The notes under the pieces were generated by a model that was not told the origin of the DNA, did no database searches, and worked only from the letters and a program-made list of their open reading frames with translations. A stretch of 14,452 nt of DNA from a virus. The translations under genes were made by a program, and so were the position numbers. Positions 1 to 14,452 of this stretch are shown here, one piece after another. The first letter of the stretch is position 1. Every line of letters starts with the position of its first letter. The DNA lies in IMG/VR virus record IMGVR_UViG_3300045988_109471, positions 1 through 14,452 of that record, one strand, 5' to 3'.

Positions 1-300
1 GCGTACTATATACAGAATTCTGTAATATTCCAGTTCCCACCGTTACAGATTTCTGAACAGTTGCTTGTACATGTCCTGCGAACACATGTCCGAAGTGCGT
101 GCGCACACCTGCAAGCAGGGCAGTGCGTGCGTGCCGGTGTACATAGTAACAATTGCTAGTTATAAGAATGATACAATTGTGCATAGTATGGTTATATAGT
201 ACATGTACCTGAAAGGCGCTCTGTGCTATACTATAATTGTACTATAAGGGTACTTATCGCTATATGACATACCGACACAGAAAGGGAGAATTTGAAATGA
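1..300. repeat. Left inverted terminal repeat (ITR-L), 300 bp
   Basis: Read directly: 1..300 is the exact reverse complement of 14153..14452, compared block by block over all 300 nt. Identity breaks at 301 vs 14152. The repeat sits at the exact window end, as expected for a linear protein-primed replicon. Confidence 0.97.
204..237 (+). promoter_or_regulatory. Candidate early promoter inside ITR-L, pointing inward
   Basis: Tandem -10-like boxes: TGcTATACT (224-232, extended -10) and TATAAT (232-237). CTGAAA (209-214) lies exactly 17 nt upstream of TATAAT. The 10-nt palindrome GTACATGTAC (199-208) abuts the -35 position. The promoter faces RBS AGGGAG (283-288) and ATG 297. This is sequence pattern only. 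Confidence 0.5.
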
Positions 301-545
301 AAAAACGCGTTATCACACCACTGGATTTTTACCGCACCTGTTACGATCTGGCACCCGACATTTTAGTTAGTGTGTACAGTGCAACGAAAGATGAAATGCC
401 CCTTTGGACTGGTGAGTTTAGGTCGATGCCCGTTGCATACCGCGATGCAATTATTGACTATATGTTTATTTGCTCGGATGGGTCAAAGATTAGAAAATTG
501 ATTTTTGCCCTGCAAGATAGGAGTATTGACTATGGCAAAGCGTAA
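297..545 (+). CDS. Hypothetical small early protein, 82 aa (DFYRxC / TGE motif family)
   Basis: ATG 297 is preceded by AGGGAG (283-288) with an 8-nt spacer. The longer track ORF from 237 starts at a TTG inside the -10 box and is not favoured. No family recognised. It shares a DFYRxC ... VY ... (W/Y)TGE(F/Y)xx(M/L)P pattern with the ORF at 13596..13778. Confidence 0.6.
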   Translation: MKKRVITPLDFYRTCYDLAPDILVSVYSATKDEMPLWTGEFRSMPVAYRDAIIDYMFICSDGSKIRKLIFALQDRSIDYGKA

Positions 546-1158: not shown

Positions 1159-3205
1159 CTTTCCGCTTGAGAAATTTGCCGCGCTGCCTGTTTTGGAGCG
1201 GAAAATCACAAGAACTAAAAAGACAAAATTGCTTGATATTGTGACAGCGTTTGACATTGAAACAACCCGTATTAAGTCAATCGAACAAGCTGTGATGTAT
1301 ATTTGGCAATGGCATTTTGCAGAACCCATCAATCTAACTGTTGTTGGCAGAACATGGGATGAATTTGAAGCATTGTGTGCCAGCCTTGAAGCCTGCATGC
1401 AAGAACAATCTCAAGAAGATTATCATTTGCAGCTGTGTGTATATGTCCACAATCTGTCATATGAGTTTCAGTTTTTACGCGGTATCTACCATTTTACAAA
1501 TGATGAGATTTTTGCAGTTGATTGCCGTAAAGTCCTGAAATGCGCGATGTACGATGATTTTTTTGAATTCCGTTGCAGCTATTTGCATAGCAATATGAGC
1601 CTTGATGCATACACCCACAAAATGGGCGTTGCCCACGGCAAACTATCCGGTGTAAAATTTGACTATAACAAACTGCGCTATCCATGGACGGCGTTGACGG
1701 ATGATGAACTTGAATATTGTGTAAACGATGTACTCGGCTTGTGTGAAGCCCTGACCATTGAAATGCACCACGACAATGATAACCTGTACACAATCCCGCT
1801 TACCTCAACCGGTTATGTGCGCCGCGATGCACGCGCCGCAATGAAACGCGCCGGAATGGAACGTCTTGGTGCTATCCAGCCCGATGCAGAATTATACACA
1901 ATGCTGCGTGAAGCGTTCCGTGGTGGCAACACCCACGCAAACCGTTATTATACCGGTCAAGTGCTGCGCGGCAAAATACAGAGCGCAGACCGCAGCAGCA
2001 GTTATCCGGATGTGCTGTGCAATTGCCTTTACCCAATGCGTGCTTTTGAGCCCATTGGCGAAATAACACTAGACGGCCTTAAACGCAAACTCAACAAGCA
2101 CAGAAAAGCATTGATAATGCGTATTGCATTAACAGACGTTGAGTTAATCAACCCTTGCTGGGGTTGCCCATATCTTACGATTGATAAGAGCCGGAACGTA
2201 ATTGACCCCGACCGCGACAACGGGCGAATATTGAGCGCAAAATATCTCGAAACAACCGTGACTGACGTTGACTTAGCAATCATTCTTAAAGAGTACAAGT
2301 TTAGCGGTTTTCGGGCATTTGACTGCTGGCAATCCACCTATGCCAAATTGCCCCGCGACCTGATTGAATGTGCAATATATTATTACCGCGCAAAAACCAG
2401 TCTTAAGAACGTAACCGGGCAAGAGTTGTACTACATGAAGAGTAAAAACAAGCTGAATAGCATATATGGCATGATGGCACAAGACCCCGGCAAACGCTCC
2501 ATTTTATACACACCGGAAGAAGAATTTGAAATTGATGAAAAAACGCCAATCGAAAATATCTTGTCGCAAAATCTGCGCAACGCCTTTTTGTGCTATCAAT
2601 GGGGCGTATGGGTGACAGCCAATGCACGCTATCGGCTTGAAGAGGGCATAGAGCTTGCAGGGGATGGCTTTGTCTATTGTGATACCGACTCTGTAAAATA
2701 TCTTGGTGACATTGACTGGACAAAATACAACAAATCCAGAATCAAAGACAGCAAAGCATCCGGTGCTTATGCAGCAGATCCATCCGGCAAAATGCATTAC
2801 ATGGGTGTTTTTGAACCTGAACATGATATGTGCGAATTTGCCACACTGGGCGCGAAAAAGTATTGTTACCGCGAAACGCCGGAAAGCCCTTTGTGCTGTA
2901 CAATCGCTGGTGTAAATAAAAAAGAGGGTGCAAAAGAGTTGGAACGCCACGGCGGCATTGATGCATTTAAGCCGGGCTTTGTTTTTAAGGATGCCGGTGG
3001 TACAGAAGCCGTATATAATGATAGTCCAGAGATGGACAGCATTACAATAGACGGTCATGTCCTGCCGATCACATCCAACGTTGTGATCCGTGAAAGCACA
3101 TACAAACTAGGAATTACTGCGGAATATATGGACTTGCTTTTGCGCTGCGACTATACCCGAAAAGGTATTGGCAGGCTGGATGAATATTTTGAAAATGGGT
3201 GTTGA
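1109..3205 (+). CDS. Protein-primed family B DNA polymerase (phi29 gp2-like), 698 aa
   Basis: Motifs seen in the translation: ExoI FDIETT (about nt 1250-1267), ExoII YCVNDV, motif A DRSSSYPDV, motif B KSKNKLNSIYGMMAQ, motif C YCDTDS (nt 2675-2692), KxY LGAKKYCY. The first in-frame ATG lies after ExoI, so the start must be non-ATG. TTG 1109 (or TTG 1124) fits, with AAGGGGG/AAGGTG (1091-1104) upstream. Confidence 0.95.
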   Translation: MKVKTLKNGQAICSVIDFPLEKFAALPVLERKITRTKKTKLLDIVTAFDIETTRIKSIEQAVMYIWQWHFAEPINLTVVGRTWDEFEALCASLEACMQEQSQEDYHLQLCVYVHNLSYEFQFLRGIYHFTNDEIFAVDCRKVLKCAMYDDFFEFRCSYLHSNMSLDAYTHKMGVAHGKLSGVKFDYNKLRYPWTALTDDELEYCVNDVLGLCEALTIEMHHDNDNLYTIPLTSTGYVRRDARAAMKRAGMERLGAIQPDAELYTMLREAFRGGNTHANRYYTGQVLRGKIQSADRSSSYPDVLCNCLYPMRAFEPIGEITLDGLKRKLNKHRKALIMRIALTDVELINPCWGCPYLTIDKSRNVIDPDRDNGRILSAKYLETTVTDVDLAIILKEYKFSGFRAFDCWQSTYAKLPRDLIECAIYYYRAKTSLKNVTGQELYYMKSKNKLNSIYGMMAQDPGKRSILYTPEEEFEIDEKTPIENILSQNLRNAFLCYQWGVWVTANARYRLEEGIELAGDGFVYCDTDSVKYLGDIDWTKYNKSRIKDSKASGAYAADPSGKMHYMGVFEPEHDMCEFATLGAKKYCYRETPESPLCCTIAGVNKKEGAKELERHGGIDAFKPGFVFKDAGGTEAVYNDSPEMDSITIDGHVLPITSNVVIRESTYKLGITAEYMDLLLRCDYTRKGIGRLDEYFENGC

Positions 3206-3235
3206 CATTTGGCCGAACTTACAGTATCATATAAT
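3202..3235 (+). promoter_or_regulatory. Promoter for the SSB gene
   Basis: TTGACA (3202-3207, overlapping the polymerase stop codon), a 17-nt spacer, then TATCAT (3225-3230), followed directly by TATAAT (3230-3235). The block TATCATATAATTGTA (3225-3239) matches the ITR block TATACTATAATTGTA (227-241) at 13/15 positions. An 8-bp hairpin ATTGTAGC-gagaa-GCTACAAT (3234-3254) follows. Confidence 0.6.
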
Positions 3236-3288
3236 TGTAGCGAGAAGCTACAATACAAATACACACGAACACAAAGGAGTAAACAACT

Positions 3289-3639
3289 ATGGAAATCATC
3301 AAGAGCTATCCCGAAAATCTGACCCTGAAGCAGGCTTACAGCCTGACCCGCAACCCCAACTCCCGCTCGATGAAAACGCTTGAGGGCGCGACTTTTAACA
3401 TTGACGCTTACGCCCTGTATGAAGACGTCAACGCTAAGGGTGACAAACAGGCAGTTCTTGCCGTGCTTACAAGCGAGGGCGACACGTTTAGCACAATCTC
3501 CGAAACTTTTAAGCGAGACTTTGAGGCAATCGTTGATATGGTTAACCAGTACAAAGCCGACCTTGCCACTGTTGATATTGAGGTTATCGGTGGCGAAAGC
3601 AAATCTGGCAGACACTATATCGGTTGCAAGATGAATTAA
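3289..3639 (+). CDS. Putative single-stranded DNA-binding protein (phi29 p5-like), 116 aa
   Basis: ATG 3289 has strong RBS AAAGGAG (3273-3279), its own promoter and a downstream terminator, which suits a highly expressed gene. By-eye similarity to phi29 p5 as I recall it: VLAVLTSEGDTFSTISETF...VDIEVIGGESKSGRHY vs TTIFAADGSLYSAISKTV...KVKVVQGTSSKGNVF. This needs a profile search. Confidence 0.6.
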   Translation: MEIIKSYPENLTLKQAYSLTRNPNSRSMKTLEGATFNIDAYALYEDVNAKGDKQAVLAVLTSEGDTFSTISETFKRDFEAIVDMVNQYKADLATVDIEVIGGESKSGRHYIGCKMN

Positions 3640-3670
3640 CCAGTTCCATTCTTGACATAATTCCTCCCAC

Positions 3671-3704
3671 AAAAGGGCGGCGGCTTGAAAACCGCCGCCC
3701 TTTT
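3671..3704 (+). terminator. Rho-independent terminator after the SSB gene
   Basis: GC-rich 9-bp stem GGGCGGCGG (3675-3683) / CCGCCGCCC (3692-3700), 8-nt loop, flanked by AAAA (3671-3674) and TTTT (3701-3704). Confidence 0.7.
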
Positions 3705-3728
3705 GAAATATATGAAAGCGAGTAAAAG

Positions 3729-4793
3729 ATGAAAAAGAACAAACTGTATCTAGAATCTGGATACCTGAACATGGATTATATTATGGCTCTGAAAACACCC
3801 TATATTATGGTTGTCGGCGGACGTGCCACCGGTAAAACATACGGTGCATTAAAATATGTACTTGAGCACCGGATCACTTTCATGCTCATGCGCCGCACAC
3901 AAACCGCCATTGACCTTGTCAATAAACCAGAGTTCAGCCCCATCAAGCCGGTCTGTGAAGATATGGGCTTGAGCATCAAACCTTTTCCGATCTCCAAAGG
4001 TAGCAGTGCTTTTTACGATGTGGATGAAGAGGGCAAATGCACCGGCGGCCTGCCGTATGGTTACACCTGCGCACTGTCCACAATCTCCAATATGCGCGGT
4101 TTTAGCGCAGAGGATTGCAAAATCTGTATTTATGATGAATTCATCCCCGAAAAACACGAACGTCCGCTAAAAAATGAAGCTGCGGCATTTTACAACGCTT
4201 ATGAAACTATCAACCGAAATAGAGAATTAAAAGGCGAACCGCCCCTTAAAATGCTGTGTCTTGCCAATGCAAACGATATTGCAAACCCGCTATTTTTGGA
4301 TATGGGGCTTGTAGCACGTGCGCAGCGGATGATTGATACCAAAACAGAGATGTGGCAAGATAATGAGCGTGGTATTACATTGATTATGCTCCAGCACTCC
4401 CCGATCTCTGCGGAAAAAGCAAATACTGCACTATACCGGCTTACAAAAAATACATTGTATAGCGCAATGGCGCTGGATAATGATTTCAGGCAAGAGTATA
4501 GCCGGATCACCCCTCAAAAAATCATTGAGTATAAGCCGGTGTGCGTTGTGGGTGAGCTGGAAATCTACCAACACAAATCCCGCGATCAATATTATGTAAC
4601 AACCCACAAATCGGGCGTTTGCCCAACCTATAAGAGCACAGAGCGCGGGATTCAGATGTTTAACGCGCACTTTTCATGGTTTAGGCTCACATACTATTTA
4701 AGCAATACCGTGTTATTTGAGTCTCCTATCTGTGAAGTTTTACTAGATAAGTATTTTCGGGAAGGTGCGAAAATCTCAAGTCGAAAAGCATAA
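3729..4793 (+). CDS. DNA encapsidation (packaging) ATPase, phi29 gp16-like, 354 aa
   Basis: Walker A GGRATGKT (nt 3816-3839) and Walker B-like ICIYDEFIPE. The block YETINRNRELKGEPPLKMLCLANANDIANPLFLDMGLV matches by eye phi29 gp16 MDTVFRNRERVRCICLSNAVSVVNPYFLFFNLV (recalled). Confidence 0.9.
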   Translation: MKKNKLYLESGYLNMDYIMALKTPYIMVVGGRATGKTYGALKYVLEHRITFMLMRRTQTAIDLVNKPEFSPIKPVCEDMGLSIKPFPISKGSSAFYDVDEEGKCTGGLPYGYTCALSTISNMRGFSAEDCKICIYDEFIPEKHERPLKNEAAAFYNAYETINRNRELKGEPPLKMLCLANANDIANPLFLDMGLVARAQRMIDTKTEMWQDNERGITLIMLQHSPISAEKANTALYRLTKNTLYSAMALDNDFRQEYSRITPQKIIEYKPVCVVGELEIYQHKSRDQYYVTTHKSGVCPTYKSTERGIQMFNAHFSWFRLTYYLSNTVLFESPICEVLLDKYFREGAKISSRKA

Positions 4794-4794
4794 A

Positions 4795-4825
4795 AACAGC
4801 CCCTGCCGTATTGGCAGGGGCTGTT
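4795..4825. terminator. Bidirectional rho-independent terminator between convergent ATPase and tail-spike genes
   Basis: 13-bp stem AACAGCCCCTGCC (4795-4807) / GGCAGGGGCTGTT (4813-4825) with a 5-nt loop. On the minus strand it is followed by TTTTTA (complement of 4790-4794); on the plus strand only a weak T-rich tail follows. Confidence 0.8.
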
Positions 4826-4829
4826 GCTG

Positions 4830-7298
4830 TTAAGAAATGTTAGGGCGCAAAACCTTGATAGCAGTCATGCCGTCATGATTCTTCCACCGCGGGAAATCCA
4901 TGGGAGTGCCGTCCATGTTGCGGATCCGGTCAAGCATTACCGGGGAGTTGCCCGGCTGGAATCCCGATACCTGCACAGTATACGCATAGGATGCAGGACG
5001 CTTGCAATACAGAATAATGGCATTGCCGTCATTGACATAATACAGTTTGTCTGTGTTGCTGACAACATCCCATGTAACTTTTTTGTCTGCCCCGGTCATT
5101 GCTTTGTAAATCGACAGATTAAGTTTGCGGTTATCAACTGCACTGATTGCAAATAGGCCACCGGTTGCGGGGTTGTTGGAAATATAGATGGTATAGTCTA
5201 CATCATTGATGTCACAGATACGGATGCATCCCTGGGAGTTGATGCCCTCGGTCGGAATAGGCAGATAAGCAAAAGCCTTGTACTGTTCGGGATCGCCGGT
5301 CTCCGATTGCCCTGCGACTGTGTACTGTGTCTGATCTGTAATTGACAGGTCAATGCACCGATGCTCTCCGGCCTTGCAAATATACTGGTTATTGCCGCTA
5401 AAAATATATTCGCGCTTGGTATAGATATACGCATTATTGATCTTGCACATCATGGCAGTGACGGGGTACTTGCCGATTGTCTGCACCGTGGTGGATACTT
5501 TGGAACTGCGGTTAATGATGCCCCCGTCAACGGTTAACTGCGGGCTGGGACTTGTGCCAATCAGTGCAATTGCTGCGTTGCCATTTCCGGTGGTTGCCGT
5601 GTCGTCATTGATCGTATAAATCAGGTTGCTGATATATGCGGCAGCCTTGCCCGGCCCGTCAAATACAATGCCCCTGCGGCAGGTATCAAGATACAGGTTG
5701 GTAATATGCACATCATTGTTTGTGACTTTAAGGCCGTTGGTATCCTCCCACCAAGTATTTGCGTCAACTCCACCGGCGCCGCCGGAGGGGATACCGTTAT
5801 AGGTGATCCAGTTACAGCCAAACACATTAGTCCGACAGTCAAAACCGGTCTGGCATACCATTGCTAGCAGGTTATTGCAATCGCAATCCGGCGACTTGTC
5901 GCCCCAATAAAACGCAACGTTACCGGCAACACGCTCTGCCGGGTGGACATCGCTAAAGCCCCATACCGAAACATTATCCATATAGCAGTACCGGCTTAAC
6001 GTGCTGGTACTGGGCTGTAAGTACACACCATAGGATTTTACACTGCCGATACTGACATTTGCGATATAGTTATCGGTGTAGTTGTCGGTCGTAAACACAA
6101 TACCGCCGATCATGCCGTTGCAAATAATATCAAGATTTGCGATAACAACGTTTCCATCCACATCATTACCGGATACGGTAAGCACTCCAAGGCTGCCAAA
6201 TGCAGTAGGGTTGCCGGTATACTTCAAAATTGTGTCACTACTGCCGCGTGCAGGGTCGCGGGACGCGCTTGCACCGTACAAGCTATGTTTGAGCTGCACC
6301 GGGGCGCTAATCTTGTATGTGCCAATAGGGACAGACAGCGGGAATTGTTTGGTATAGGTGTTTAAGGTTGCTGTGATGTCGTCCGTGCCGTCCTTTTTGA
6401 GCTTTTGAAACTCCTCGATGCTACGCGGGGAAGGCTTGATACTGTCGGGAATTTTGCCGGTGCGGCTAACCAAAAAATCTGTGTCACGGTTAGCTACTCG
6501 GATGTTGACGACAGCATAATTGTCATCAATATTGGTGGTGTGAAGCGAACTAAAGTTTGGTACACCATAGATATCTAGGGGTGTATTTCTGCTGCTGCTG
6601 CCCACTGTAATGGCATAATTTGTTGCCGTTAGTACAGACATATCGTTTTGCCGGATGCCAAAAGCACCACCGGAATTTAAGCGCAAAGTTCCGTCAACCG
6701 TCTGATTAAAGTTTCCGCTGACCGTCTGCGCAAGGTCCCCGGTGGTGTCCTTATCAATCTTGTTAGGCAGTGCTGTGTTAATAGCCGTAACGTCATTTTG
6801 CAGCGTGCTCACAGCATGCGCCAAATTGGCAAGTCTTGCATCAATCGTGGTTTTTGCCGTGTTGTTGGTGCCGTACTCGGTGCCGCGTGTAATTGCGGTG
6901 GTGCAGACATATAGGGTATTATTGAGCCATACAAGGTCGCCGTTTGCCCGGTCTGCGCTTGCCGTGGTTTTGAGTCCCTCATCTGCTGCCGCGATTGCCA
7001 ATTTGACCGTGCTCCATAGCTCGGAAAAATTGCCAATCTTTGTCCAGTAGTCGGTGTTGTCGATTTCCACGCCGACCGGCACCGGCTGCACGCTTAAATA
7101 GCCGTCTCCGTTGGTATCAAGCACAACCTGATTTTTAGGGTACTGCCGCGTAATATCCCATTGCAGCGGGTTTGCATAGGTAATGCTATTGAGCGAGATA
7201 AAATCCGCAATAGCTGCATCCTGCTTTTTGAGCGTCTCCAAAATCCAGTCAAGATTTAGCTCGTGGAAATTGGTATAAGGCCATCTGGTATCAAACAT
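4830..7298 (-). CDS. Tail spike / appendage protein with right-handed beta-helix (pectin-lyase-like) central domain, 822 aa
   Basis: ATG 7298 has AAGGAG 8 nt upstream. The N-terminal FHELNLDWILETLKK-type virion-attachment domain is common in Firmicute phage fibers. A short coiled segment (RLANLAHAVSTLQNDVTAINTAL) follows. A long Gly/Asn/Thr/Val-rich repetitive beta region (e.g. VTNNDVHITNLYLDTCRRGIVFDG) is typical of beta-helix depolymerase spikes. It is the last gene of the late operon, as phi29 gp12 follows the collar genes. Confidence 0.8.
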   Translation of the reverse strand: MFDTRWPYTNFHELNLDWILETLKKQDAAIADFISLNSITYANPLQWDITRQYPKNQVVLDTNGDGYLSVQPVPVGVEIDNTDYWTKIGNFSELWSTVKLAIAAADEGLKTTASADRANGDLVWLNNTLYVCTTAITRGTEYGTNNTAKTTIDARLANLAHAVSTLQNDVTAINTALPNKIDKDTTGDLAQTVSGNFNQTVDGTLRLNSGGAFGIRQNDMSVLTATNYAITVGSSSRNTPLDIYGVPNFSSLHTTNIDDNYAVVNIRVANRDTDFLVSRTGKIPDSIKPSPRSIEEFQKLKKDGTDDITATLNTYTKQFPLSVPIGTYKISAPVQLKHSLYGASASRDPARGSSDTILKYTGNPTAFGSLGVLTVSGNDVDGNVVIANLDIICNGMIGGIVFTTDNYTDNYIANVSIGSVKSYGVYLQPSTSTLSRYCYMDNVSVWGFSDVHPAERVAGNVAFYWGDKSPDCDCNNLLAMVCQTGFDCRTNVFGCNWITYNGIPSGGAGGVDANTWWEDTNGLKVTNNDVHITNLYLDTCRRGIVFDGPGKAAAYISNLIYTINDDTATTGNGNAAIALIGTSPSPQLTVDGGIINRSSKVSTTVQTIGKYPVTAMMCKINNAYIYTKREYIFSGNNQYICKAGEHRCIDLSITDQTQYTVAGQSETGDPEQYKAFAYLPIPTEGINSQGCIRICDINDVDYTIYISNNPATGGLFAISAVDNRKLNLSIYKAMTGADKKVTWDVVSNTDKLYYVNDGNAIILYCKRPASYAYTVQVSGFQPGNSPVMLDRIRNMDGTPMDFPRWKNHDGMTAIKVLRPNIS

Positions 7299-7310
7299 GC
7301 TATAATCTCC

Positions 7311-7922
7311 TTAATATACAAGCAGCAAAAATTGTTGCTTAAACTTGTCAATCAGATACTCGTACATATTCCAATCGGCAACCCGGCGTTCTTCTTCAAT
7401 CATCTGCTGTGATGTGGTCACGCCGATATTGCCATGTACCCGCCCTGTGTGTTTTAACTCTTCGTTGCTGTTGCCTTCGCTGTTTCCGATTTGCGTACTC
7501 TCGTTATTGCTGTCGTTGTCATTTTGACCACTGGTAACAAGGTTTCCGCTATCAAAACCTGCGGCCTTGCTGATATCGGTACTATGATTTTTGCCGGTGC
7601 CAACGTCCTTACTCTGTACTTTGCTGTTGGTTTTGTTGTTGTCTGTCCAGTCCTCTTTTCTATCATAGTTTTCAATCGGATTGTATTCCAGCTTCGTTGT
7701 GTTCCACATCTTACTCCAACTGTCCAGATGTGCGCTTGACCAAATGCCAATAACAGAGCGCATAGTTGCGGGGTTTGAAAACAGCACTTCCATTTCTGCC
7801 GTTTCCATCAGCAGATTGTTAATGTATAACTGTTTATCCATGCCCTCCGGCAATACCAACTCGTTAAAAATTGTGTTGTCGTACTGGTACAGCCCTAACA
7901 GTGACAAGGTTGCTTTACTCAT
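7311..7922 (-). CDS. Hypothetical structural protein in the lower-collar (gp11) position, 203 aa
   Basis: ATG 7922 overlaps the portal stop by 8 nt (GAAGATGAGTAA) with GAGGG upstream. The track's longer ORF (to 8033) runs inside the portal gene and is rejected. There is a conserved-looking N-terminal half (...LEYNPIENYDRKE...) and an Asn/Ser/Asp/Gly-rich low-complexity middle. The function call rests on gene order only. Confidence 0.4.
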   Translation of the reverse strand: MSKATLSLLGLYQYDNTIFNELVLPEGMDKQLYINNLLMETAEMEVLFSNPATMRSVIGIWSSAHLDSWSKMWNTTKLEYNPIENYDRKEDWTDNNKTNSKVQSKDVGTGKNHSTDISKAAGFDSGNLVTSGQNDNDSNNESTQIGNSEGNSNEELKHTGRVHGNIGVTTSQQMIEEERRVADWNMYEYLIDKFKQQFLLLVY

Positions 7923-8826
7923 CTTCACCGCCCTCACTTTCCGCGCTGATCTGCGGCTTGTTGCGCCACTCCACGCCAAGTTTGATGCCAAACATTTTGT
8001 TAGTTTGGGCAAAACTCTTTTGCAGCTGATCAAGCCACAAATCCGCTTTGCTGGTTACTTCCACATTATTGGCGTTCACCTCATCGCTGATAAGACGTTC
8101 TTTTTTGTCTGTGTTGGCGTTAGGGATGCCGACATCTGTATCAAACATCATTTCCCATTTGCGCAGATCCGCCAGTGCATCGCCCGCAATATAGTTTTGC
8201 CCGACATTCTGCTGAAAAGGTATCCAAGAGGGGTTGCCGCTCTGCACGTCATACAATGCTGTATCCACAAATGTTGCAGGCTCGCCGCTTGCAACCCGGT
8301 CAAACAGTTTCTTTTGACTTTCGGCAGTATTTTTATTTTTGCCAAAAAACACATAGGATAGACGGCTGTTGACAAGGTTTACTCCGGCGGTTTCGGCTGT
8401 TAAGGCCATCATATCGGCGTAAAACCCAACCAAATCCATGACGCTGCCATAATCAGGTTGCAGCTTGATTAGTGTGCATTGCGTGCCAATATCCAGACTG
8501 CGCAAACCTCTAAGCAAGGGATTTGTGACAAGGGCGCGTTTGGGCTGGTAAAAAATGTTGTACCCATCAAGCCCGCACTGCTGCGGGATAACTCCGTACT
8601 TGTCAGTGTTGAGTACGGCAATATAGCCGATGCCGTACAAAACATACAAAAAATAGTCTCTGTCCCACGTTTCCGGCAAATCCCACTTAAATACAGACAT
8701 TGCTTTTTGCAGCAAGTAGCGGGCAAAAAAGCGTTGCAGCTCTGTGTTTTTGGTGTGTACCGTGCTAGGGCTGTGCTGACTTACTTCTGCGTTGATGTAA
8801 TCGTACATATAAGGCGCGGCCTGCAT
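7915..8826 (-). CDS. Portal (upper collar / connector) protein, phi29 gp10-like, 303 aa
   Basis: Strong by-eye match to phi29 gp10 (recalled): WEMMFDTDVGIPNANTDKKERLISDEVNANNVEVTSKADLWL...MFGIKLGVEWR vs [41 protein letters not shown]...LYGLNVKVKFR, plus an acidic C-terminus. ATG 8826 has GGGGGTG (8839..8833) 6 nt upstream and is preferred over the track's GTG 8835, which lies inside that RBS. It overlaps the M23 stop as TAATG. Confidence 0.92.
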   Translation of the reverse strand: MQAAPYMYDYINAEVSQHSPSTVHTKNTELQRFFARYLLQKAMSVFKWDLPETWDRDYFLYVLYGIGYIAVLNTDKYGVIPQQCGLDGYNIFYQPKRALVTNPLLRGLRSLDIGTQCTLIKLQPDYGSVMDLVGFYADMMALTAETAGVNLVNSRLSYVFFGKNKNTAESQKKLFDRVASGEPATFVDTALYDVQSGNPSWIPFQQNVGQNYIAGDALADLRKWEMMFDTDVGIPNANTDKKERLISDEVNANNVEVTSKADLWLDQLQKSFAQTNKMFGIKLGVEWRNKPQISAESEGGEDE

Positions 8827-9377
8827 TATTTGCACCCCCTTGCCATTTTAAGCAATAGCCATACCGGGATTGCTTTTTTCCCGGGCGTGGGCGGCTCTGG
8901 GCCGGGGCCGGGCGGATTGTCTGCACTCCACGTTACATCATACTTACCAACCGCGTTTGGGATGCCCAAAATCTGGGATGGATCTTGACGGTATCGGGTA
9001 GAGCGACCGCCTACCCAATATTCCCAATGGGTATGCACACCGGTTGCATTGCCGGTCTGACCCTGTGTGCCGATCAAATCGCCCGCTTTGAGCACCTCTC
9101 CGACCTTATGTGTCTGTGCCTTAAAATGTGCAGCCAGCCAATAACGCTTATTGCCCATATCAACCACTATATAGTTGCCCCAACTGTCGTTACCGGTTTT
9201 GCCGCCTTGCCAAGTGTGCGCAATGACAATTGTACCGGCCTGCGGCGCAAACGCCAAAAAATCAGTTGGATGCTTGGTGTCAATGCCGCCGTGATGTGAT
9301 CCATCCGAATAATACGGATATGCTGCGGTCACTGTGATTGTGCTTTCATCTGTGATACATTGTGGATAGCTTGCCAT
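8826..9377 (-). CDS. M23 (LytM-type) zinc metallopeptidase, peptidoglycan hydrolase, 183 aa
   Basis: HxxxD motif HHGGID and HxH motif HTHWE are in the expected order and spacing. ATG 9377 has GAGGTG 7 nt upstream. A C-terminal Pro-rich linker (PPGPGPEPPTPG) is followed by the hydrophobic tail AIPVWLLLKMA. Confidence 0.9.
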   Translation of the reverse strand: MASYPQCITDESTITVTAAYPYYSDGSHHGGIDTKHPTDFLAFAPQAGTIVIAHTWQGGKTGNDSWGNYIVVDMGNKRYWLAAHFKAQTHKVGEVLKAGDLIGTQGQTGNATGVHTHWEYWVGGRSTRYRQDPSQILGIPNAVGKYDVTWSADNPPGPGPEPPTPGKKAIPVWLLLKMARGCK

Positions 9378-9388
9378 ATAATTTCACC

Positions 9389-10861
9389 TCACTCATAAAA
9401 AAACCCATCTGACATAAAATTATTAACAGCGCCAATTTCCGTACTGGTTGCGGGCGCGTTAAAATCTGGATTGTAAACCTGCACATAACCGTATAAGTTG
9501 CCGATTTTAACAGATTTACAGAGCGGTCTCCCTCGCCGCTCTTTGTCAGTTTCAACTAGCGGCATAAATGTTGCATATAGTTGTGGGGGATTCTGCCGCC
9601 ACGTCATGCACCCCTGTGCGCCGCGTGTTTCTACTTCCGCGTTGGCACTTTGCAGCGCATCACCCACGCCGCTTACAATATTGCTTGCAGTCGTGCCGAT
9701 AACATCACCCATTGACTTATCAGGGTTAAGCCAATTTTTCACATCGCTAAATAAGCCCCTCATAAAAGCCCCGCCCACGGCAATACCCGTATTTACGGCA
9801 TTGCTTCCCGGTGTTGTGGGCGCCATCGAAATCTGCGTAATAGTTAATGGGATGCCGATCTGTGCAGTGCTAGTGCGGATAACGTGATTATGTTCAGGAT
9901 CTGTGCATATACGCAAAATCGCAAAACCGGTATACTGATCAATCTGATAATGTAAATATAGACGTGATACATTAACAATTTTGGTGCTGTCTAGCGGTAT
10001 ATCGCCAAAGGGTGGTACATTGATATTGTATCTACTGTAAGGCTCCAAGTTAATCCAACTTCCCAGGTCGGCTGCCTGCGGATGTTTCGGGATTTGCAAC
10101 TCTGTGTACACGTCTTTTTTTGCATACTCCCCCAGCAGCGGATAAGCTTGTACACCTTCCATTTCCCACCAGCCAAACGGTAATGGGGTGGTTGCGCTAT
10201 CTGTGCTATAATTCAGCGCAAACGGAAAATATAACAGACTTGAAACATATTGTGTCGGATTAAAAAGCGCTTTTGCAAGACTGTCTGATATTTCTTCTGC
10301 CTGCAAATTAAGGTAGTCAACAGAGCCCAAAAGCTTGTTCGCAAGAATCTGCATGTTCTGGAGGTCAAGTCTCCAATATTTCAAAAAACCGCTTCCATAA
10401 CCGCCTTTTGAGCTAATGGCTATACAATAATCGCCATTGTCCCATGCTCTGTTAGGCGCGAATGGATTATTTGCGGTTGTAACTTCGCGCGAAACTTGCA
10501 CGTTTGTTGGATACAGCGAATCAACAATACTACCATCATAAGCACTAGCCGAACGTGTTACATATTCTACGCTATCCGCAATATTTGTGCGCCACGTTGC
10601 AAGCACATCAACAGACATGCTTGCATACCACATGCCCGCCGTCCAAGTCCAGTTGTCGATAAAATAAAATCTGCCAAAATCTGGAATATATGCATAGTTC
10701 CACGCGTGAGGGCTTTCCGTCTGCCCAAACGCCACAAAACCAATTTCCGGCGCTAACATGCTGCATGATTCACGCAACTGACCTTGCACGCCTTTTGACG
10801 TTCCGGCGGGGCGGGCGGTACTGTTCAATTTTTTGGCAAATTGATATAGCGTAATATTCAC
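9389..10861 (-). CDS. Tail knob / major tail protein, phi29 gp9-like, 490 aa
   Basis: GTG 10861 has AGAGGTG 7 nt upstream. N-terminal block YIPDFGRFYFIDNWTWTAGMWYASMSVDVLATW resembles phi29 gp9 NKWFYAFVTELEF...HFEIDVLQTW (recalled). There are Gly/Ala-rich hydrophobic loops (NTGIAVGGAFMRGLF, IGTTASNIVSGVGDAL). The C-terminal block G.P...V.IGNL.GYVQV...T..E...V..FM..GFFYE is typical of this family. Confidence 0.7.
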   Translation of the reverse strand: MNITLYQFAKKLNSTARPAGTSKGVQGQLRESCSMLAPEIGFVAFGQTESPHAWNYAYIPDFGRFYFIDNWTWTAGMWYASMSVDVLATWRTNIADSVEYVTRSASAYDGSIVDSLYPTNVQVSREVTTANNPFAPNRAWDNGDYCIAISSKGGYGSGFLKYWRLDLQNMQILANKLLGSVDYLNLQAEEISDSLAKALFNPTQYVSSLLYFPFALNYSTDSATTPLPFGWWEMEGVQAYPLLGEYAKKDVYTELQIPKHPQAADLGSWINLEPYSRYNINVPPFGDIPLDSTKIVNVSRLYLHYQIDQYTGFAILRICTDPEHNHVIRTSTAQIGIPLTITQISMAPTTPGSNAVNTGIAVGGAFMRGLFSDVKNWLNPDKSMGDVIGTTASNIVSGVGDALQSANAEVETRGAQGCMTWRQNPPQLYATFMPLVETDKERRGRPLCKSVKIGNLYGYVQVYNPDFNAPATSTEIGAVNNFMSDGFFYE

Positions 10862-10878
10862 GCTCTTTCACCTCTTTC

Positions 10879-10909
10879 AAAAATACCCCGTGCCATAACT
10901 GACACGGGG
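10879..10909 (-). terminator. Intra-operon rho-independent terminator/attenuator after the capsid gene
   Basis: On the minus strand: CCCCGTGTC-agttat-GGCACGGGG (10909..10886; 9-bp stem including one G-U pair), followed by TATTTTT (10885..10879). It lies between the capsid stop (10923) and the tail-knob RBS. Confidence 0.6.
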
Positions 10910-10922
10910 CTATTATTAAGAG

Positions 10923-12137
10923 TTAGTCAAGCAGCAGCACAACGGCCTTTTCGGTGTTGTCCTGGATAGTCTTGATGGTTGCATGCTCCGCGGTGTTCCA
11001 ATAGCCGCCGTCAATGTTGAGCGGGGTGGTCGCGCTCCACTTGTTGGTGTAGCAATAGCCCAGCGCGTCACGGTCGTGCATGATGCCGAAAATACCGGCC
11101 TGCTCCACGGCCTTGGATGCCTTTTTGACTGCACCGGCGGTGCTGGTGTATACTGGCGTGATGTTCACGCTGTCGGGGGTTTCGATAGACTGCCAGAAAT
11201 TGACGCCCTCAAACTTGGCAAGCTTGAGATAATCGTCATGAAACGTGGTAGACAGTGCCATGGTGCGCATCTGCTCATATGCCTTACTGTACAGAGCCAC
11301 GCGAAGGTCACTACCACGGGTGTGGCGGAGAACGGGCTTTGCGTTAATAACGGTCTGGTAGAGCTGACTGCGCTCGCCCATAAAACGGGCAATCACGTTC
11401 AGACGGGCATACACCCAACGCATAAAGGGCGCAAAATTATCGGGCTGGTATACGCTCTGCGCCGACAGGCTCAAGCCGGTTTCAGCGTTGTACTCGGACA
11501 ACAGGTGGACAACGCGGGACTTCTGGCCCTCGTCAAGGATTGCCGCGATAAAGTTCGCCTGCATACCGCGAGCAACCGCTTCACGATAGGATTCTTTATC
11601 GTTATTGCGCTCCGTCATGTTCATGGCGTTAAAACGCATAAATTCATCGGCAGAAGACATTGCCACATCAAACTGGTCTTTAAACGTGGTGTAGCGCTGC
11701 TGGTAAACTGCCGTGCCGTAAAAGTTGGTCTGCAAGACTTCCTGCTTGCTAATCTTGTACATGTCAACACTTTCGCCATTACCCAGAGCGTTTGCCTTAT
11801 GATTAGTTGCATCATAGGCAACGGGCCAGATAAAACGCTGGTCGTCCTGCATCTTTGCGGCAATGGGACTAATCTTGCGCAGCGCGTTGCCGTAACGGGT
11901 CAAATCCATTTCAAGACTGGTTAGAGGGCTGGAATAATCGCGCACTGCGTAAATGGAGCTGCTCCAAATCTGCGACAGTGCGTTAATAATGGGGTCATAC
12001 CCGGTTTTAAGAGCGGTCTGGGCAACCGAAACAAACTGCTCCGGCGTGTCAATGCTGGTAATTACTTTCTGCCCGGTTGCCTGTTCAACGGCCTCACCAA
12101 GGATGGTTGCGGCCTGGGAAATAGTCATATCATTCAT
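10923..12137 (-). CDS. Major capsid protein (phi29 gp8 position/size class), 404 aa
   Basis: ATG 12137 has GAGGTG 7 nt upstream. About 400 aa, located after the scaffold gene and followed by an attenuating terminator. General resemblance to small-podovirus HK97-fold capsid proteins. No diagnostic motif could be verified by eye. Confidence 0.78.
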   Translation of the reverse strand: MNDMTISQAATILGEAVEQATGQKVITSIDTPEQFVSVAQTALKTGYDPIINALSQIWSSSIYAVRDYSSPLTSLEMDLTRYGNALRKISPIAAKMQDDQRFIWPVAYDATNHKANALGNGESVDMYKISKQEVLQTNFYGTAVYQQRYTTFKDQFDVAMSSADEFMRFNAMNMTERNNDKESYREAVARGMQANFIAAILDEGQKSRVVHLLSEYNAETGLSLSAQSVYQPDNFAPFMRWVYARLNVIARFMGERSQLYQTVINAKPVLRHTRGSDLRVALYSKAYEQMRTMALSTTFHDDYLKLAKFEGVNFWQSIETPDSVNITPVYTSTAGAVKKASKAVEQAGIFGIMHDRDALGYCYTNKWSATTPLNIDGGYWNTAEHATIKTIQDNTEKAVVLLLD

Positions 12138-12151
12138 TGCTTGTCACCTCA

Positions 12152-12475
12152 CTATTTCAAAAAATAGGAATCATCACCGCTATTGATGTCACCGTATTCA
12201 ATCACACTAATTCTGACACCGTTCACGTTAGCCGACTCATTGCGAACGGTTAAGCGATTCAATCCTTTTCCCGTATTTTTCGATTGGAAATCATATTCCA
12301 CAACCATATTACCCGGTTGGGAAAAAAACTGATCATCTTTAAATGCAGTCCCTGGGGTCATTTGAAAACTAAAAGCGCTCTTTATCAAAATTTTTCTAAC
12401 AGGTTTTTCAAAAAGAAAAGTAAACATAGCGCCTTGTTCAGCTGGTAATACATAAGAGTAAAACTGTCGCGCCAT
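12152..12475 (-). CDS. Hypothetical beta-rich protein between scaffold and capsid genes, 107 aa
   Basis: ATG 12475 overlaps the scaffold stop by 1 nt (TAATG), which suggests translational coupling. It fills the whole gap to the capsid RBS. No family recognised. Confidence 0.6.
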   Translation of the reverse strand: MARQFYSYVLPAEQGAMFTFLFEKPVRKILIKSAFSFQMTPGTAFKDDQFFSQPGNMVVEYDFQSKNTGKGLNRLTVRNESANVNGVRISVIEYGDINSGDDSYFLK

Positions 12476-12786
12476 TACTTATCCCCACCCCTCGGCATAA
12501 TGATATTTGCGAGCACATCTTCTGCGGTCTGCGGCTTTGGCTGTTCAGTCGCCGCAATGTTCATGGTTTTAATTTGAGCGCCCAATGCATTGATAGCCGC
12601 AATAATGCCGTTTGCATCCTCAACGGGTGCAGCGGGGGCAGCGGGCGCGGCAGGGGCAGCGGGTGCGGCGGGGGCAGCGGGCGTTGCAGGGGCAGCGGGT
12701 GCGGCGTTGTCAAAAGTGACAAGCTTTGCAAGGTCGTCTTTGGTATAACCTGCACGGCACAGAGCAATAATATCATCAATAGTCAT
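12475..12786 (-). CDS. Putative scaffolding protein with (Ala-Ala-Pro)9 linker, 103 aa
   Basis: ATG 12786 has GAGGTG (12800..12795) 8 nt upstream. The track's longer ORF (to 12960) overlaps the upstream gene and lacks an RBS. It is small, helical and acidic, lies upstream of the capsid gene like phi29 gp7, and ends ...AEDVLANIIMPRGGDK. Confidence 0.6.
   Translation of the reverse strand: MTIDDIIALCRAGYTKDDLAKLVTFDNAAPAAPATPAAPAAPAAPAAPAAPAAPVEDANGIIAAINALGAQIKTMNIAATEQPKPQTAEDVLANIIMPRGGDK
12625..12705. repeat. Tandem 9-nt repeat x9 (two 36-nt super-units) encoding AAPAAPATPAAPAAPAAPAAPAAPAAP
   Basis: Read directly: nine 9-mers lie between 12625 and 12705. The 36-nt unit 12634-12669 is repeated at 12670-12705 with 2 mismatches. 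It is in frame within the scaffold CDS. Confidence 0.85.
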
Positions 12787-12791
12787 GTATA

Positions 12792-13004
12792 TTACACCTC
12801 TTTCAATACGGTTGTTTTGGTTTGGTCGTTGATAAGTTTGACAAGTGTGTCTTTGTCGCCTGCCGTCATGGGGCCGCATACAGCGTTTTGATTGTAATTG
12901 TGGGTGTATTCGCTGTAATAGCCAATACCCAATTGCTTGCATTTGCTGTATACAATCCACGCCTGTGCGCTAGTAATGTCGGCATACATTACAACATACA
13001 TCAT
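12792..13004 (-). CDS. Hypothetical protein, 70 aa
   Basis: ATG 13004 overlaps the stop of the upstream small ORF (ATGA overlap). Its stop at 12792 lies inside the scaffold RBS region. No family recognised. Confidence 0.55.
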   Translation of the reverse strand: MMYVVMYADITSAQAWIVYSKCKQLGIGYYSEYTHNYNQNAVCGPMTAGDKDTLVKLINDQTKTTVLKEV

Positions 13005-13153
13005 GCATCACCGTCCTGTTTGCTCATGTGCTCGCAGAGTTTTACGATGGCAGCGGTGTTTTCTTTGATCGTGGTGTTACTCTGCCACCACATAAGCAAA
13101 AATGCTGCAATCGGAAAACCAACCTGCTGGATGATAGTGATAATCTCTTCCAT
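13001..13153 (-). CDS. YvrJ-like small single-pass membrane protein, 50 aa (holin candidate)
   Basis: Not in the supplied ORF track (below the size cutoff); I translated it by hand. ATG 13153 has GAGGTG (13165..13160) 6 nt upstream. Product: MEEIITIIQQVGFPIAAFLLMWWQSNTTIKENTAAIVKLCEHMSKQDGDA. The N-terminal ...VGFPIAAFLL... hydrophobic helix followed by a polar helical tail matches the YvrJ-family pattern as I recall it. Confidence 0.6.
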   Translation of the reverse strand: MEEIITIIQQVGFPIAAFLLMWWQSNTTIKENTAAIVKLCEHMSKQDGDA

Positions 13154-13180
13154 GGTTTACACCTCACTTTCAGGGGACGG

Positions 13181-13270
13181 AAATACAAAAAGCGGGAAAA
13201 GACTCTTGACCCGCTACAAGGTCGTGCGCCGGATTCCGTCCGTATAGCTTGCGCATCTTTTCCCGCTTTC
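13181..13270 (-). ncRNA. Structured RNA element: three-way-junction fold closed by a 14-bp stem and followed by a U-tract (terminator-like leader or small RNA)
   Basis: Minus-strand RNA. AAAGCGGGAAAAGA (13269..13256) pairs perfectly with UCUUUUCCCGCUUU (13202..13189). Inside are helix UGCGC/GCGCA (13255..13251 / 13229..13225), hairpin CGGA-CGGAA-UCCG (13242..13230) and hairpin CUUG-UAGCGGGU-CAAG (13220..13205). The 3' side runs into UUUUUGUAUUU (13191..13181). Hand-folded; no energy calculation. Confidence 0.5.
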
Positions 13271-13299
13271 ATAATATCATATTAAGTTATTGATGTCAA
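13271..13299 (-). promoter_or_regulatory. Near-consensus sigma-A/sigma-70 promoter with extended -10, reading leftward
   Basis: Minus strand: TTGACA (13299..13294), a 17-nt spacer ending in TGa, then TATTAT (13276..13271). It overlaps the stop codon (13282-13284) of the upstream early gene. Confidence 0.75.
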
Positions 13300-13581
13300 G
13301 TGCCGTGATCCGAAATCAAGATAAACCTCGTTGTATGATAATTTCCGCGACCACCCACCAAACCCATAATCATGTTCGTGGTATTCATACGAGATTTTGA
13401 CATTCTCTTCCCGCGCAATCAAATACAGATACTCTTCAATTTGATTCAAGGCCCCGCGATTCCATTGTAAAGTGCCAGCATCGCACTCGCCCCTCTTAAG
13501 CTGTTCCTTGTTGAGAGCGACTAGCTCGGATCTGCGGTTGTACTCTGCTGCAAGCCGACATAATAATTTGTCCATCGTCAT
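13282..13581 (-). CDS. Hypothetical early protein, 99 aa
   Basis: ATG 13581 has GGGGGA 7 nt upstream. The track start (13614) is a GTG overlapping the previous gene. No family recognised. Confidence 0.6.
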   Translation of the reverse strand: MTMDKLLCRLAAEYNRRSELVALNKEQLKRGECDAGTLQWNRGALNQIEEYLYLIAREENVKISYEYHEHDYGFGGWSRKLSYNEVYLDFGSRHLTSIT

Positions 13582-13595
13582 AATATATTCCCCCG

Positions 13596-13778
13596 TTACA
13601 AGTAAAATTTCCACTCCATGTTCGGATTGACTAGCACGATTTCAAACTCATGTTTTGCAAGTGTGTAAGGCAAGTCACCATATTCACCGGTGTAAATACA
13701 ACGGTCTTTATCATACACGCGAATACTTGTTTTAGACTGCATTGACAGGCATGCACGGTAAAAGTCACGGATTGTCAT
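13596..13778 (-). CDS. Hypothetical small early protein, 60 aa (DFYRxC / TGE motif family, paralog of 297..545)
   Basis: ATG 13778 has AAGGGGA about 10 nt upstream. The track start at 13784 is a TTG. Motif sharing with the left-end gene is described under 297..545. Confidence 0.55.
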   Translation of the reverse strand: MTIRDFYRACLSMQSKTSIRVYDKDRCIYTGEYGDLPYTLAKHEFEIVLVNPNMEWKFYL

Positions 13779-13995
13779 TGCCAAACATCCCCTTTATATA
13801 CTCATCTGCCCATACGGCAAAATCATTATTACATTCGTTGCGTTTATCCTCATTGATAAGGTGCTTTGTTCTGCGTGCCATTGCGCACACGGGCAAGTGG
13901 TCACATGTTGCGCATGATTCATTCACACCGCAATTACACAAAAGGTCATTGATTGCACGCTCAAGCGCGGTGCGCTTTGCTGTGTAGGTTGTCAT
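13765..13995 (-). CDS. Hypothetical Cys-rich small protein, 76 aa (possible zinc-binding)
   Basis: ATG 13995 has a strong RBS (GGAGGAGGTGG) and an ATGA overlap with the upstream gene. Cys residues at 20, 22, 28, 31, 37 and 55 form C-x-C-x5-C-x2-C-x-H-x3-C. Confidence 0.6.
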   Translation of the reverse strand: MTTYTAKRTALERAINDLLCNCGVNESCATCDHLPVCAMARRTKHLINEDKRNECNNDFAVWADEYIKGMFGNDNP

Positions 13996-14156
13996 TTGTA
14001 GACCACCTCCTCCTGTATGGACTCATCAGAAATGCCCATAAAGGACATATAATCTTTTGTCGCAATCAATGCTTCCCTAGTGCTCATGCCCACATATACC
14101 TGCACATGATTAAGCATATCAATTACAAAAATCACCGCTGCATCTCTAATAATCAT
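13992..14156 (-). CDS. Hypothetical small early protein, 54 aa (first gene of the right arm)
   Basis: Its ATG (14156..14154) and RBS AGGGAG lie inside ITR-R and are identical to the initiation region of the left-end gene. The sequence diverges one base after the ATG. Confidence 0.5.
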   Translation of the reverse strand: MIIRDAAVIFVIDMLNHVQVYVGMSTREALIATKDYMSFMGISDESIQEEVVYK

Positions 14157-14452
14157 TTCAAATTCTCCCTTTCTGTGTCGGTATGTCATATAGCGATAAG
14201 TACCCTTATAGTACAATTATAGTATAGCACAGAGCGCCTTTCAGGTACATGTACTATATAACCATACTATGCACAATTGTATCATTCTTATAACTAGCAA
14301 TTGTTACTATGTACACCGGCACGCACGCACTGCCCTGCTTGCAGGTGTGCGCACGCACTTCGGACATGTGTTCGCAGGACATGTACAAGCAACTGTTCAG
14401 AAATCTGTAACGGTGGGAACTGGAATATTACAGAATTCTGTATATAGTACGC
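14153..14452. repeat. Right inverted terminal repeat (ITR-R), 300 bp
   Basis: Exact reverse complement of 1..300 and ends at the last base of the window. Confidence 0.97.
14216..14249 (-). promoter_or_regulatory. Candidate early promoter inside ITR-R, pointing inward (mirror copy)
   Basis: Identical sequence to 204..237 by ITR symmetry. It would drive the leftward right-arm genes starting at ATG 14156. Confidence 0.5.

Follow-up and report, generated by a model that had tools for sequence, protein, structure and literature searches.

A candidate gene for a miniature packaging RNA resembling pRNA, located at the start of the late operon in small phi29-like gut phages

The virus DNA analysed in this study is IMG/VR record IMGVR_UViG_3300045988_109471, positions 1 to 14,452, and "the window" below means this whole stretch of 14,452 nucleotides (nt). 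On its minus strand, at about 13266..13187 and directly in front of the late operon, the window carries a structured RNA element of ~75-80 nt which folds as a three-way junction of helices named A, C, E and D. On the aligned sequences of its relatives all five helices of the element covary, including a fifth one that is formed between a 5' bulge and the loop of hairpin D. We consider it probable that the element is the gene of a miniature packaging RNA similar to the prohead RNA (pRNA) of phi29, in which helix A and the adjoining U-tract would act as a leaky terminator, and that the late operon would be transcribed by read-through. The observations that carry this reading are the structure itself, its covariation, the placement of the promoter, the genomic context and the topological match to pRNA. 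The coordinates of all the features are collected in Table 1.

The folding score that the first-pass annotation of this DNA had proposed to compute is in favour of a structured RNA. The 96-nt stretch has a minimum free energy (MFE) of -36.3 kcal/mol as compared to -25.95 +/- 3.36 kcal/mol in shuffled sequences (z -3.08), none of the 200 shuffles was as good, and the fold is unchanged in the MFE structure of the 147-nt read-through transcript. The 3' strand of helix C adjoins the E stem directly with no 3' bulge, and GCUAUA, the final six bases of the 5' bulge, is complementary to the entire loop of hairpin D, UGUAGC. The E loop is CGGAA in most sequence types, and CAGAA, CCGAA or AGCC in the distant types. 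Helix A is an uninterrupted duplex in the window and in most clades, with exceptions in the relatives L022 (a 1-nt bulge) and L029 (a U.U mismatch). The linker between D and A is longer than that between C and D, and by a rule which we take as a lead only the D arm would presumably point away from the C/E arm.

Covariation of the helices was evaluated on two alignments. Plain MAFFT misaligned the 3' half of the divergent members, and covariance-model alignments were used instead. In the alignment of 21 sequences made by covariance model (A8), 97.9% of the cells were in standard pairs, compared with 37-49% when the partners were slid by 1-3 columns. Twenty-one of the 25 pairs changed on both sides, including all twelve pairs counted for helix A, and the covariation score was 0.933 versus 0.234 +/- 0.022 in shuffles. 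The bulge-loop helix was not countable on A8 because the loops are out of register there. Its counts rest on a hand alignment fitted to the structure (A6), in which N padding and artificial spacer tags were scored as unpaired and each concatenated row was checked as a contiguous genomic string. On A6, 95.6% of the cells were paired and 31 of the 37 pairs changed on both sides (helix A 15/17, C 2/5, E 4/4, D 5/5 and the bulge-loop helix 5/6), and the three central bulge-loop pairs were 100% paired with 3-4 pair types each. Since A6 was fitted to the structure, a register-free permutation test was added, in which the best complementary runs between each bulge and its own D loop summed to 106. 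The sum was 65.7 +/- 7.3 when the loops were swapped among nine clades and 65.6 +/- 5.8 when the loop bases were shuffled, and 106 was reached by none of the 20,000 and none of the 5,000 permutations, respectively. The complementarity between bulge and D loop was kept in 18 of 18 parsed sequences with eight distinct combinations (GCUAUA/UGUAGC, GAACA/UGUUC, GGACA/UGUCC, GAGU/ACUC, UGUGC/GCACA, UGCAC/GUGCA, GACC/GGUC and UGC/GCA). Further combinations were found in distant members, namely AAUCA/UGAUU, GUCCA/UGGAC, GAUCA/UGAUC, GGC/GCC and UCC/GGA.

A capsid-protein search of IMG/VR gave 35 related contigs, with capsid identities of 39-98%. MT835998, a human-gut phage contig without annotation, has 87.7% identity to the window over 78% of the window's length. 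The element is present in 11 close relatives, where the RNA body is 97% identical as against 90% for the 170-column region including the flanks, and where the promoter hexamers are kept while the spacer varies. A compensatory change from G-C to U-A was found in helix A of L012, at the pair adjoining the U-tract, and a double change in the bulge and loop of L008 (GCUAUG/UAUAGC) keeps all six pairs. Three covariance models were used, and their E-values are rough. R1 was built from the window's clade and matches L021-L028 (~61% capsid identity). R2 was built from those eight L021-L028 sequences only; it matches the window at 13183..13270 on the minus strand with 66 bits (E=3e-17), and also L034, L030, L013, L016 and L029 with 41-60 bits, at the same positions where a descriptor scan had placed the element. 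R2 matches MT836263 and MT836115 as well and, weakly, MT836587 and MT835901, and R3 matches L032, L033 and L036. The RNA was found in every related phi29-like contig with enough upstream sequence, giving about 15 sequence types. With the filters off, R3 gave only simple hairpins in phi29, Av-1, phiCP7R, Enterococcus phage CUB-FM, Bifidobacterium phage BadAztec1, Acinetobacter phage Phanie, MT836155 and MT836125.

Two of the distant members are described here separately. The RNA of L043 (MT835901, 6021-6107, plus strand) is divergent and has nearly no D stem, and its 8-nt bulge AAAAGGAA lies opposite UUCCUUUU; the model match is weak (E=0.037) but it is at the expected place behind a TTGACA-17-TATGAT promoter. 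Among cultured phages, the Amedibacillus phages AD70P2 and AD70P3 of Guelinviridae come closest, with 29% capsid identity. An unannotated candidate was found in AD70P3 (L038, OP172639) at 6296-6367 on the minus strand, in a 124-nt gap after the packaging ATPase gene and before the late genes, with the promoter TTGACA-16-TATATT (with TG). Its helices are UGAGGG/CCCUCA for A and GUUGC/GCAAC for C, its bulge is AUAUCCAA, and its hairpins are UAGUG-CCGAA-CACUA for E and AGUA-GGGA-UACU for D, with UCC/GGA complementarity between bulge and loop. The membership of AD70P3 is based on inspection and on a generic structural descriptor, and the covariance models give it no score. The descriptor recovers eight known members and AD70P3 at a rate of one match per 151 kb of shuffled sequence, and is unusable alone because of a few spurious matches, including a tRNA.

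The promoter of the element ranked first among the sigma-70-like sites of the window, with 11 of 12 matches and as the sole one with an extended -10 TG, while promoter-like sites as a class were mildly enriched (39 in the window versus 27.4 +/- 5.4 in shuffles). The first-pass annotation had described on the minus strand a TTGACA hexamer, a 17-nt spacer with TG and a TATTAT hexamer, lying over the stop codon of the last right-arm early gene and followed by a perfect 14-bp stem, and our reading of that strand bears this out. The stop codon (TAA 13284..13282 of the open reading frame (ORF) 13282..13614) is in the spacer, the stem pairs 13269..13256 with 13202..13189 entirely by Watson-Crick pairs with a G.U wobble flanking each end, and its 3' arm continues into TTTTTGTATTT at 13191..13181. 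The motif GAGGTG and ATG 13153 of the 50-amino-acid (aa) ORF 13001..13153 are also where that annotation had put them, so the order is a strong promoter, a stable structure, a U-tract and the first late gene about 30 nt on. No promoter was called by the promoter scan between the U-tract and ATG 13153, and thus transcripts entering the late operon must traverse the element. The annotation had called this structure terminator-like. The stem and the U-tract are present, but the element is not a plain hairpin; it is a three-way-junction RNA. Its proposal that the element is primarily an attenuator or a switch like those of lambda Q or HK022 put found no specific support and no Rfam match, and termination is hardly the core role because the relatives conserve the internal three-way junction and the bulge-loop pairing instead. 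Its fallback of a self-contained small-RNA gene is near to the reading that the evidence favours.

A G+C-rich stem followed by a U-rich tract, as in intrinsic terminators, is present in the window (CCCGC and then UUUUUGUAUUU, with 8 U in the first 10 nt). A simple terminator scan does not list it, because the stem encloses a 51-nt branched structure and not a loop of 3-8 nt. This U-tract is confined to the window's clade, and in the 14 other types the 10 nt next to helix A contain 0-6 U; the terminator is therefore not conserved wherever the element is conserved. In most of the other types a ribosome-binding site (RBS) and a start codon come 13-61 nt after the RNA. The exception is L041 (MT836587, 8489-8564, minus strand), in which a tRNA-Gln starts ~6 nt after helix A and the next start codon is 102 nt downstream. 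Judged by its sequence, this tandem of RNA and tRNA behind one promoter is the arrangement of a stable-RNA operon. In L039 (MT836263; 3917-3993, minus strand) a tRNA-Pro occurs elsewhere in the genome, and a search of the window for tRNA and tmRNA found none. The CCGUCC box after the U-tract hardly varies among the close relatives and is missing from the other clades. It is unpaired in the MFE structure of the longer transcript; that MFE structure of the 147-nt RNA keeps the three-way junction and predicts no antiterminator pairing. A coding reading was also considered. The ORF 13042..13272 on the minus strand (76 aa) has its ATG inside the -10 hexamer and spans the whole RNA, and it was judged to be spurious because the indels of the relatives just downstream are not multiples of three and the covariation is of the RNA type.

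The genomic context is that of a small phi29-like phage. The window resembles a complete linear genome with perfect 300-bp inverted terminal repeats (ITRs) at 1-300 and 14153-14452, far longer than the 6-bp ITR of phi29, and it encodes a type-B polymerase, a gp16-type ATPase, a gp10-type connector and an M23 peptidase. With phi29 gp16 the ATPase shares 27% identity over residues 1-253 (E=2e-11). Protein priming may be supposed from the polymerase family and the ITRs, and no terminal protein was identified. Helix A has a sigma-70 promoter (9-11 of 12 matches) in front of it in 12 of the 15 sequence types, with a gap of 2-11 nt. In the collinear contigs L013, L022, L029, L030 and L034 the RNA follows the ATPase gene at a distance of 15-215 nt, and the late genes begin immediately after the RNA. 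The order in L021-L028 is a TTGACA-17-TATACT promoter, a gene with a GFPIA motif, the RNA and the other late genes.

Table 1. Positions of the RNA element and of related features in the window
Feature	Position	Strand	Remarks
-35 hexamer TTGACA	13299..13294	minus	11/12-match promoter; TTGAC constant in 11 close relatives, spacer variable
Extended -10 (TG, A, TATTAT)	TG 13279..13278; TATTAT 13276..13271	minus	ATATGATA constant among close relatives
Predicted transcription start (G/C/G), first helix A pairs	13264..13266	minus	Deduced from the usual 5-8-nt spacing after the -10
Helix A	13266..13255 with 13203..13192	minus	GCGGGAAAAGAU / GUCUUUUCCCGC; MFE fold, covariation
Helix C	13254..13251 with 13229..13226	minus	GCGC / GCGC; outer two pairs invariant, inner two covary
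8-nt 5' bulge AAGCUAUA	13250..13243	minus	Counterpart of the pRNA CE loop
E hairpin CGGA / CGGAA / UCCG	13242..13230, loop 13238..13234	minus	4/4 stem pairs covary
Linker AC	13225..13224	minus	
D hairpin GACCU / UGUAGC / GGGUC	13223..13208, loop 13218..13213	minus	5/5 stem pairs covary
Linker AAGA	13207..13204	minus	
U-tract UUUUUGUAUUU	13191..13181	minus	TTTTTGTAT constant in 11 close relatives; intrinsic-terminator-like end with helix A base
CCGUCC box in leader	13180..13175	minus	Complementary to GGACGG of the E arm (13241..13236)
RBS GAGGUG (13165..13160) and first late gene, 50 aa	13165..13001	minus	GFPIA-motif membrane-like protein
DNA_pol_B_2 polymerase	1109-3205		PF03175; organellar/viral type-B family including that of phi29
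gp16-type DNA-encapsidation ATPase (Podovirus_Gp16)	3729..4793	plus	PF05894, E=5.4e-14; presumed protein partner
gp10-type connector (portal)	7915..8835	minus	PF05352, E=2.1e-19; presumed docking site

Other features of these genomes were observed besides the element. The GFPIA-motif gene, possibly a holin gene, comes after the RNA in the window, L029 and L030 and before it in L021-L028 (72-260 in L025 and 141-338 in L021), which in terms of gene order is a local swap between clades. Each ITR of the window has an inward promoter-like CTGAAA-17-TATAAT, at 209..237 on the plus strand and 14244..14216 on the minus strand. Within the late operon, a strong hairpin with a U-tract follows straight after the capsid gene at 10910..10885 on the minus strand, next to a weak promoter-like site at 10853-10880 on the same strand, and looks like an internal terminator which sets stoichiometry. 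G+C-rich palindromic hairpins with U/A tracts on both sides are located at 3663-3707, before the ATPase gene, and at 4795-4825, where the ATPase gene and the late operon converge. These two are probably bidirectional terminators, and they were the source of spurious Rfam matches.

From these observations we infer termination, read-through, ring formation and binding to the prohead and the ATPase, in the following way. The near-consensus sigma-70 promoter would start transcription at about 13264-13266, at the first pairs of helix A, and with this start helix A would be the very end of the molecule. The arms would fold first, and the G+C-rich base of helix A would then close beside the U-tract. 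In the window's clade, the closure beside UUUUUGUAUUU may terminate a fraction of the transcripts and set free an RNA of ~75-80 nt. Polymerases that read through would supply the mRNA of the 8.3-kb late operon, and the amounts of the RNA and of late mRNA would thereby be coupled. No other promoter is visible there, and for the late genes of the other clades, too, none is visible besides this one. By analogy with phi29, the bulge of one molecule would pair with the D loop of the next to form a ring on the prohead connector, and helix A would recruit the gp16-type ATPase to package the terminal-protein-linked genome. The RNA of the other clades would be the 5' leader of the late transcript, or would lie between its first and second genes, and would have to be released by processing, with RNase P as a possible agent in front of a tRNA and perhaps a cut at the A+U-rich linker elsewhere.

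Several points weigh against a packaging RNA. The Rfam model of the phage pRNA (RF00044, Phage_pRNA) gives no match at E<=10 in the whole window or in 13150-13310 alone, and R3 does not find the phi29 pRNA, while phi29 itself scores 145 bits with RF00044. Because there is no match either way, any homology is putative, and the likeness may reflect convergence or coincidence. Helix A has 9-17 bp here and is without the CCA bulge of pRNA, which is necessary for packaging and ATPase binding (PMC5066667). The junction linkers also differ: the A/C linker has 0-1 nt here and 1 nt in phi29, and the D/A linker has 2-5 nt here and 0 nt in phi29. The N-terminal RKR of phi29 gp10 binds pRNA, and the N-terminus of the connector in the window (MQAAPYMYDY...) is without a basic cluster or basic RNA-binding motif. 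Most clades have no terminator after the RNA, so that a free RNA needs a putative processing step, and for the clades without the U-tract this step is the weakest link of the argument. The bulge-loop pairing may be an internal pseudoknot rather than an intermolecular contact, and a cis-acting leader would account just as well for the constant location of the RNA at the start of the late transcript. Finally, asccphi28, a related phi29-like phage of Lactococcus, is reported to show "no evidence for a pRNA" and was taken as a model for that very reason (PMC7823558), and therefore not all gp16-type motors need one.

A cis-acting leader of the late operon, which would attenuate transcription until a phage factor intervenes or, like put or EAR, make RNA polymerase resistant to terminators so that it could cross the 8.3-kb operon with its internal terminators, is in our judgement an unlikely explanation that deserves to be kept in view. 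The RNA is always within the late transcription unit; it comes directly behind the promoter in 12 of 15 types, and in L021-L028 the first small gene precedes it. Most clades are without a terminator after the RNA, which is then co-transcribed with the late genes. Late transcription must also pass the strong hairpin and U-tract at 10910..10885, and the lack of another called promoter between the U-tract and ATG 13153 and the clade-specific CCGUCC box complementary to the E arm, which could support an alternative pairing, are in line with a leader as well. However, the U-tract is confined to one clade and attenuation therefore cannot be the conserved function, the MFE structure of the read-through transcript retains the three-way junction and leaves the CCGUCC box unpaired, and no cis-regulatory or antitermination family of Rfam matches. 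The gene downstream varies by clade, and in L041 it is a tRNA, where RNase P would sever the RNA from the operon. A leader also leaves unexplained the detailed pRNA-like architecture in phages with the pRNA-dependent type of motor. With much the same low degree of belief we entertain that the RNA does two jobs in sequence, in that it would gate the entry of polymerase into the structural operon and then become a ring-forming packaging RNA of ~75 nt on the prohead. In the window's clade the gating would be by the helix A terminator, possibly modulated when the connector or the ATPase captures the RNA.

Slightly less likely again is another trans-acting or protective role, such as a regulatory small RNA, a decoy or sponge for a host factor or defence system, or a 5' stabiliser against 5' exonucleases. 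The promoter is strong, the 5'-terminal helix is stable with little or no 5' overhang, the conserved unpaired CGGAA loop and the A residues of the bulge resemble a binding site for a protein or other macromolecule, and no known RNA family was matched. But a stabiliser needs only a terminal hairpin and not a covarying three-way junction with a bulge-loop pairing, the sole complement of the loops seen in the window is the clade-specific CCGUCC box, and such roles do not explain why the layout is pRNA-like or why the RNA is linked to the ATPase gene. It is very improbable that the locus is an ordinary junction, where the terminator of the right-arm early operon meets an unrelated late or early promoter around a functionless inner sequence. 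Such a junction would fit with the last early ORF having its stop codon in the promoter spacer and with the A residues 13269..13267, which would lengthen the stem opposite the U-tract only if transcription had begun farther upstream; however, the inner 51 nt are the most conserved part, three further helices covary over about 15 types, and the covariance models find the element in clades without the U-tract. The comparative data already contradict this explanation.

If the element is a packaging RNA as we favour, it would be of some consequence for the phi29-like phages. To our knowledge, prohead RNA is the only known RNA integral to a viral DNA-packaging motor. It has been described as unique to phi29 and related Bacillus phages (PMC5066667; PMC11476376), and a paper on Clostridium podoviruses mentions pRNA only as the partner of the ATPase (PMC3362512). 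In the literature, which was covered incompletely, we found no prior description of a pRNA-like RNA outside Bacillus phages, Guelinviridae included. A second RNA family, unrelated in sequence and equivalent in architecture, would then exist in a radiation of gut phages of 11-15 kb, RNA-scaffolded packaging motors would be broader than thought, and the question whether pRNA is ancient or was repeatedly recruited would be affected. At roughly two-thirds of the minimal phi29 pRNA in size, the RNA would offer a natural minimal design for dissecting the essential features of pRNA. If it has two jobs, RNA-dependent packaging would be widespread in small phi29-like phages of the gut and hard-wired to late transcription. 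The cultured Amedibacillus phage AD70P3 appears to carry the RNA, and the idea is therefore directly testable. The RNA may also serve as a new, presumably self-assembling three-way-junction scaffold of the kind used in RNA nanotechnology. For annotation, the late operon of these phages opens with an RNA gene that is missed by current pipelines.

The element was compared with the known RNAs. A search with 4227 Rfam families of the whole window and of the 161-nt region 13150-13310 gave nothing relevant, and only a chance match to mir-H20 (E=4.6); no family of any kind reached E<=1 at the locus, and the presence of put's own model in Rfam was not checked. HK022 put, lambda Q/qut and the B. subtilis EAR are promoter-proximal elements of processive antitermination, and the RNA here is similar to them as a structured nascent RNA of ~70 nt that follows a strong promoter and precedes a long operon with terminators. 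But put is composed of two stem-loops and not of a three-way junction with a bulge-loop pairing, and unlike put and EAR the element has a terminator directly after it in one clade only and a tRNA in another. An intrinsic terminator or attenuator is resembled in the window's clade by the stem base GCGGG/CCCGC, after which UUUUUGUAUUU follows at once; the difference is that the "loop" is a branched, covarying structure of 51 nt and that no alternative antiterminator pairing is predicted. The phi29-like, non-Bacillus Actinomyces phage Av-1 (L047, NC_009643.1) has an annotated "packaging RNA" at 16295-16402. This region overlaps coding sequence, folds like shuffles (z +0.53) and has no R3 match, and it was considered unrelated to the RNA described here.

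The closest resemblance is to the pRNA of phi29, an RNA that binds proheads, is needed for DNA packaging and is missing from mature virions. The RNA here has ~75 nt as compared to 120-174 nt, helix C has 4-5 bp instead of 9 bp, helix A is shorter too, and the E loop is CNGAA and not UUGAGU. The strands that run on contiguously are those of A and C here and those of D and A in phi29. In phi29 the gene is at the left end of the genome; the RNA gene here opens the late operon or follows the ATPase gene, and in most clades it has no terminator of its own. The RF00044 consensus on phi29 starts with helix A, a 1-nt linker, the 9-bp helix C and a bulge of 9 nt that is confined to the 5' side; the final four bases of this bulge (AACC) pair with the 5-nt D loop, which contains GGUU. 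The rest of it is a 4-bp E stem with a 6-nt loop, the 3' strand of C, UUU, a 6-bp D stem and the 3' strand of A. The same three-way junction is found here with the same order of A, C, bulge, E, 3' strand of C, D and 3' strand of A. The bulge is also on the 5' side only, with 7-8 nt here and 9 nt in phi29, the E stem has 4 bp in both, and helix A joins the 5' end to the 3' end. The bases of the D loop are complementary to those in the 3' part of the bulge, and the match survives as the sequences change. In pRNA, the pairing between the CE loop and the D loop mediates self-association on the prohead, and pRNAs share only 12% sequence similarity with a conserved secondary structure (PMC5066667). 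The RNA here has its own near-consensus promoter firing into it, as promoter A1 at 328-356 lies just upstream of the phi29 pRNA, and both occur in small phages with ITRs, a DNA_pol_B_2 polymerase, a gp16-type ATPase and a gp10-type connector. The element is not a demonstrable member of RF00044, and on paper its design is that of a pRNA.

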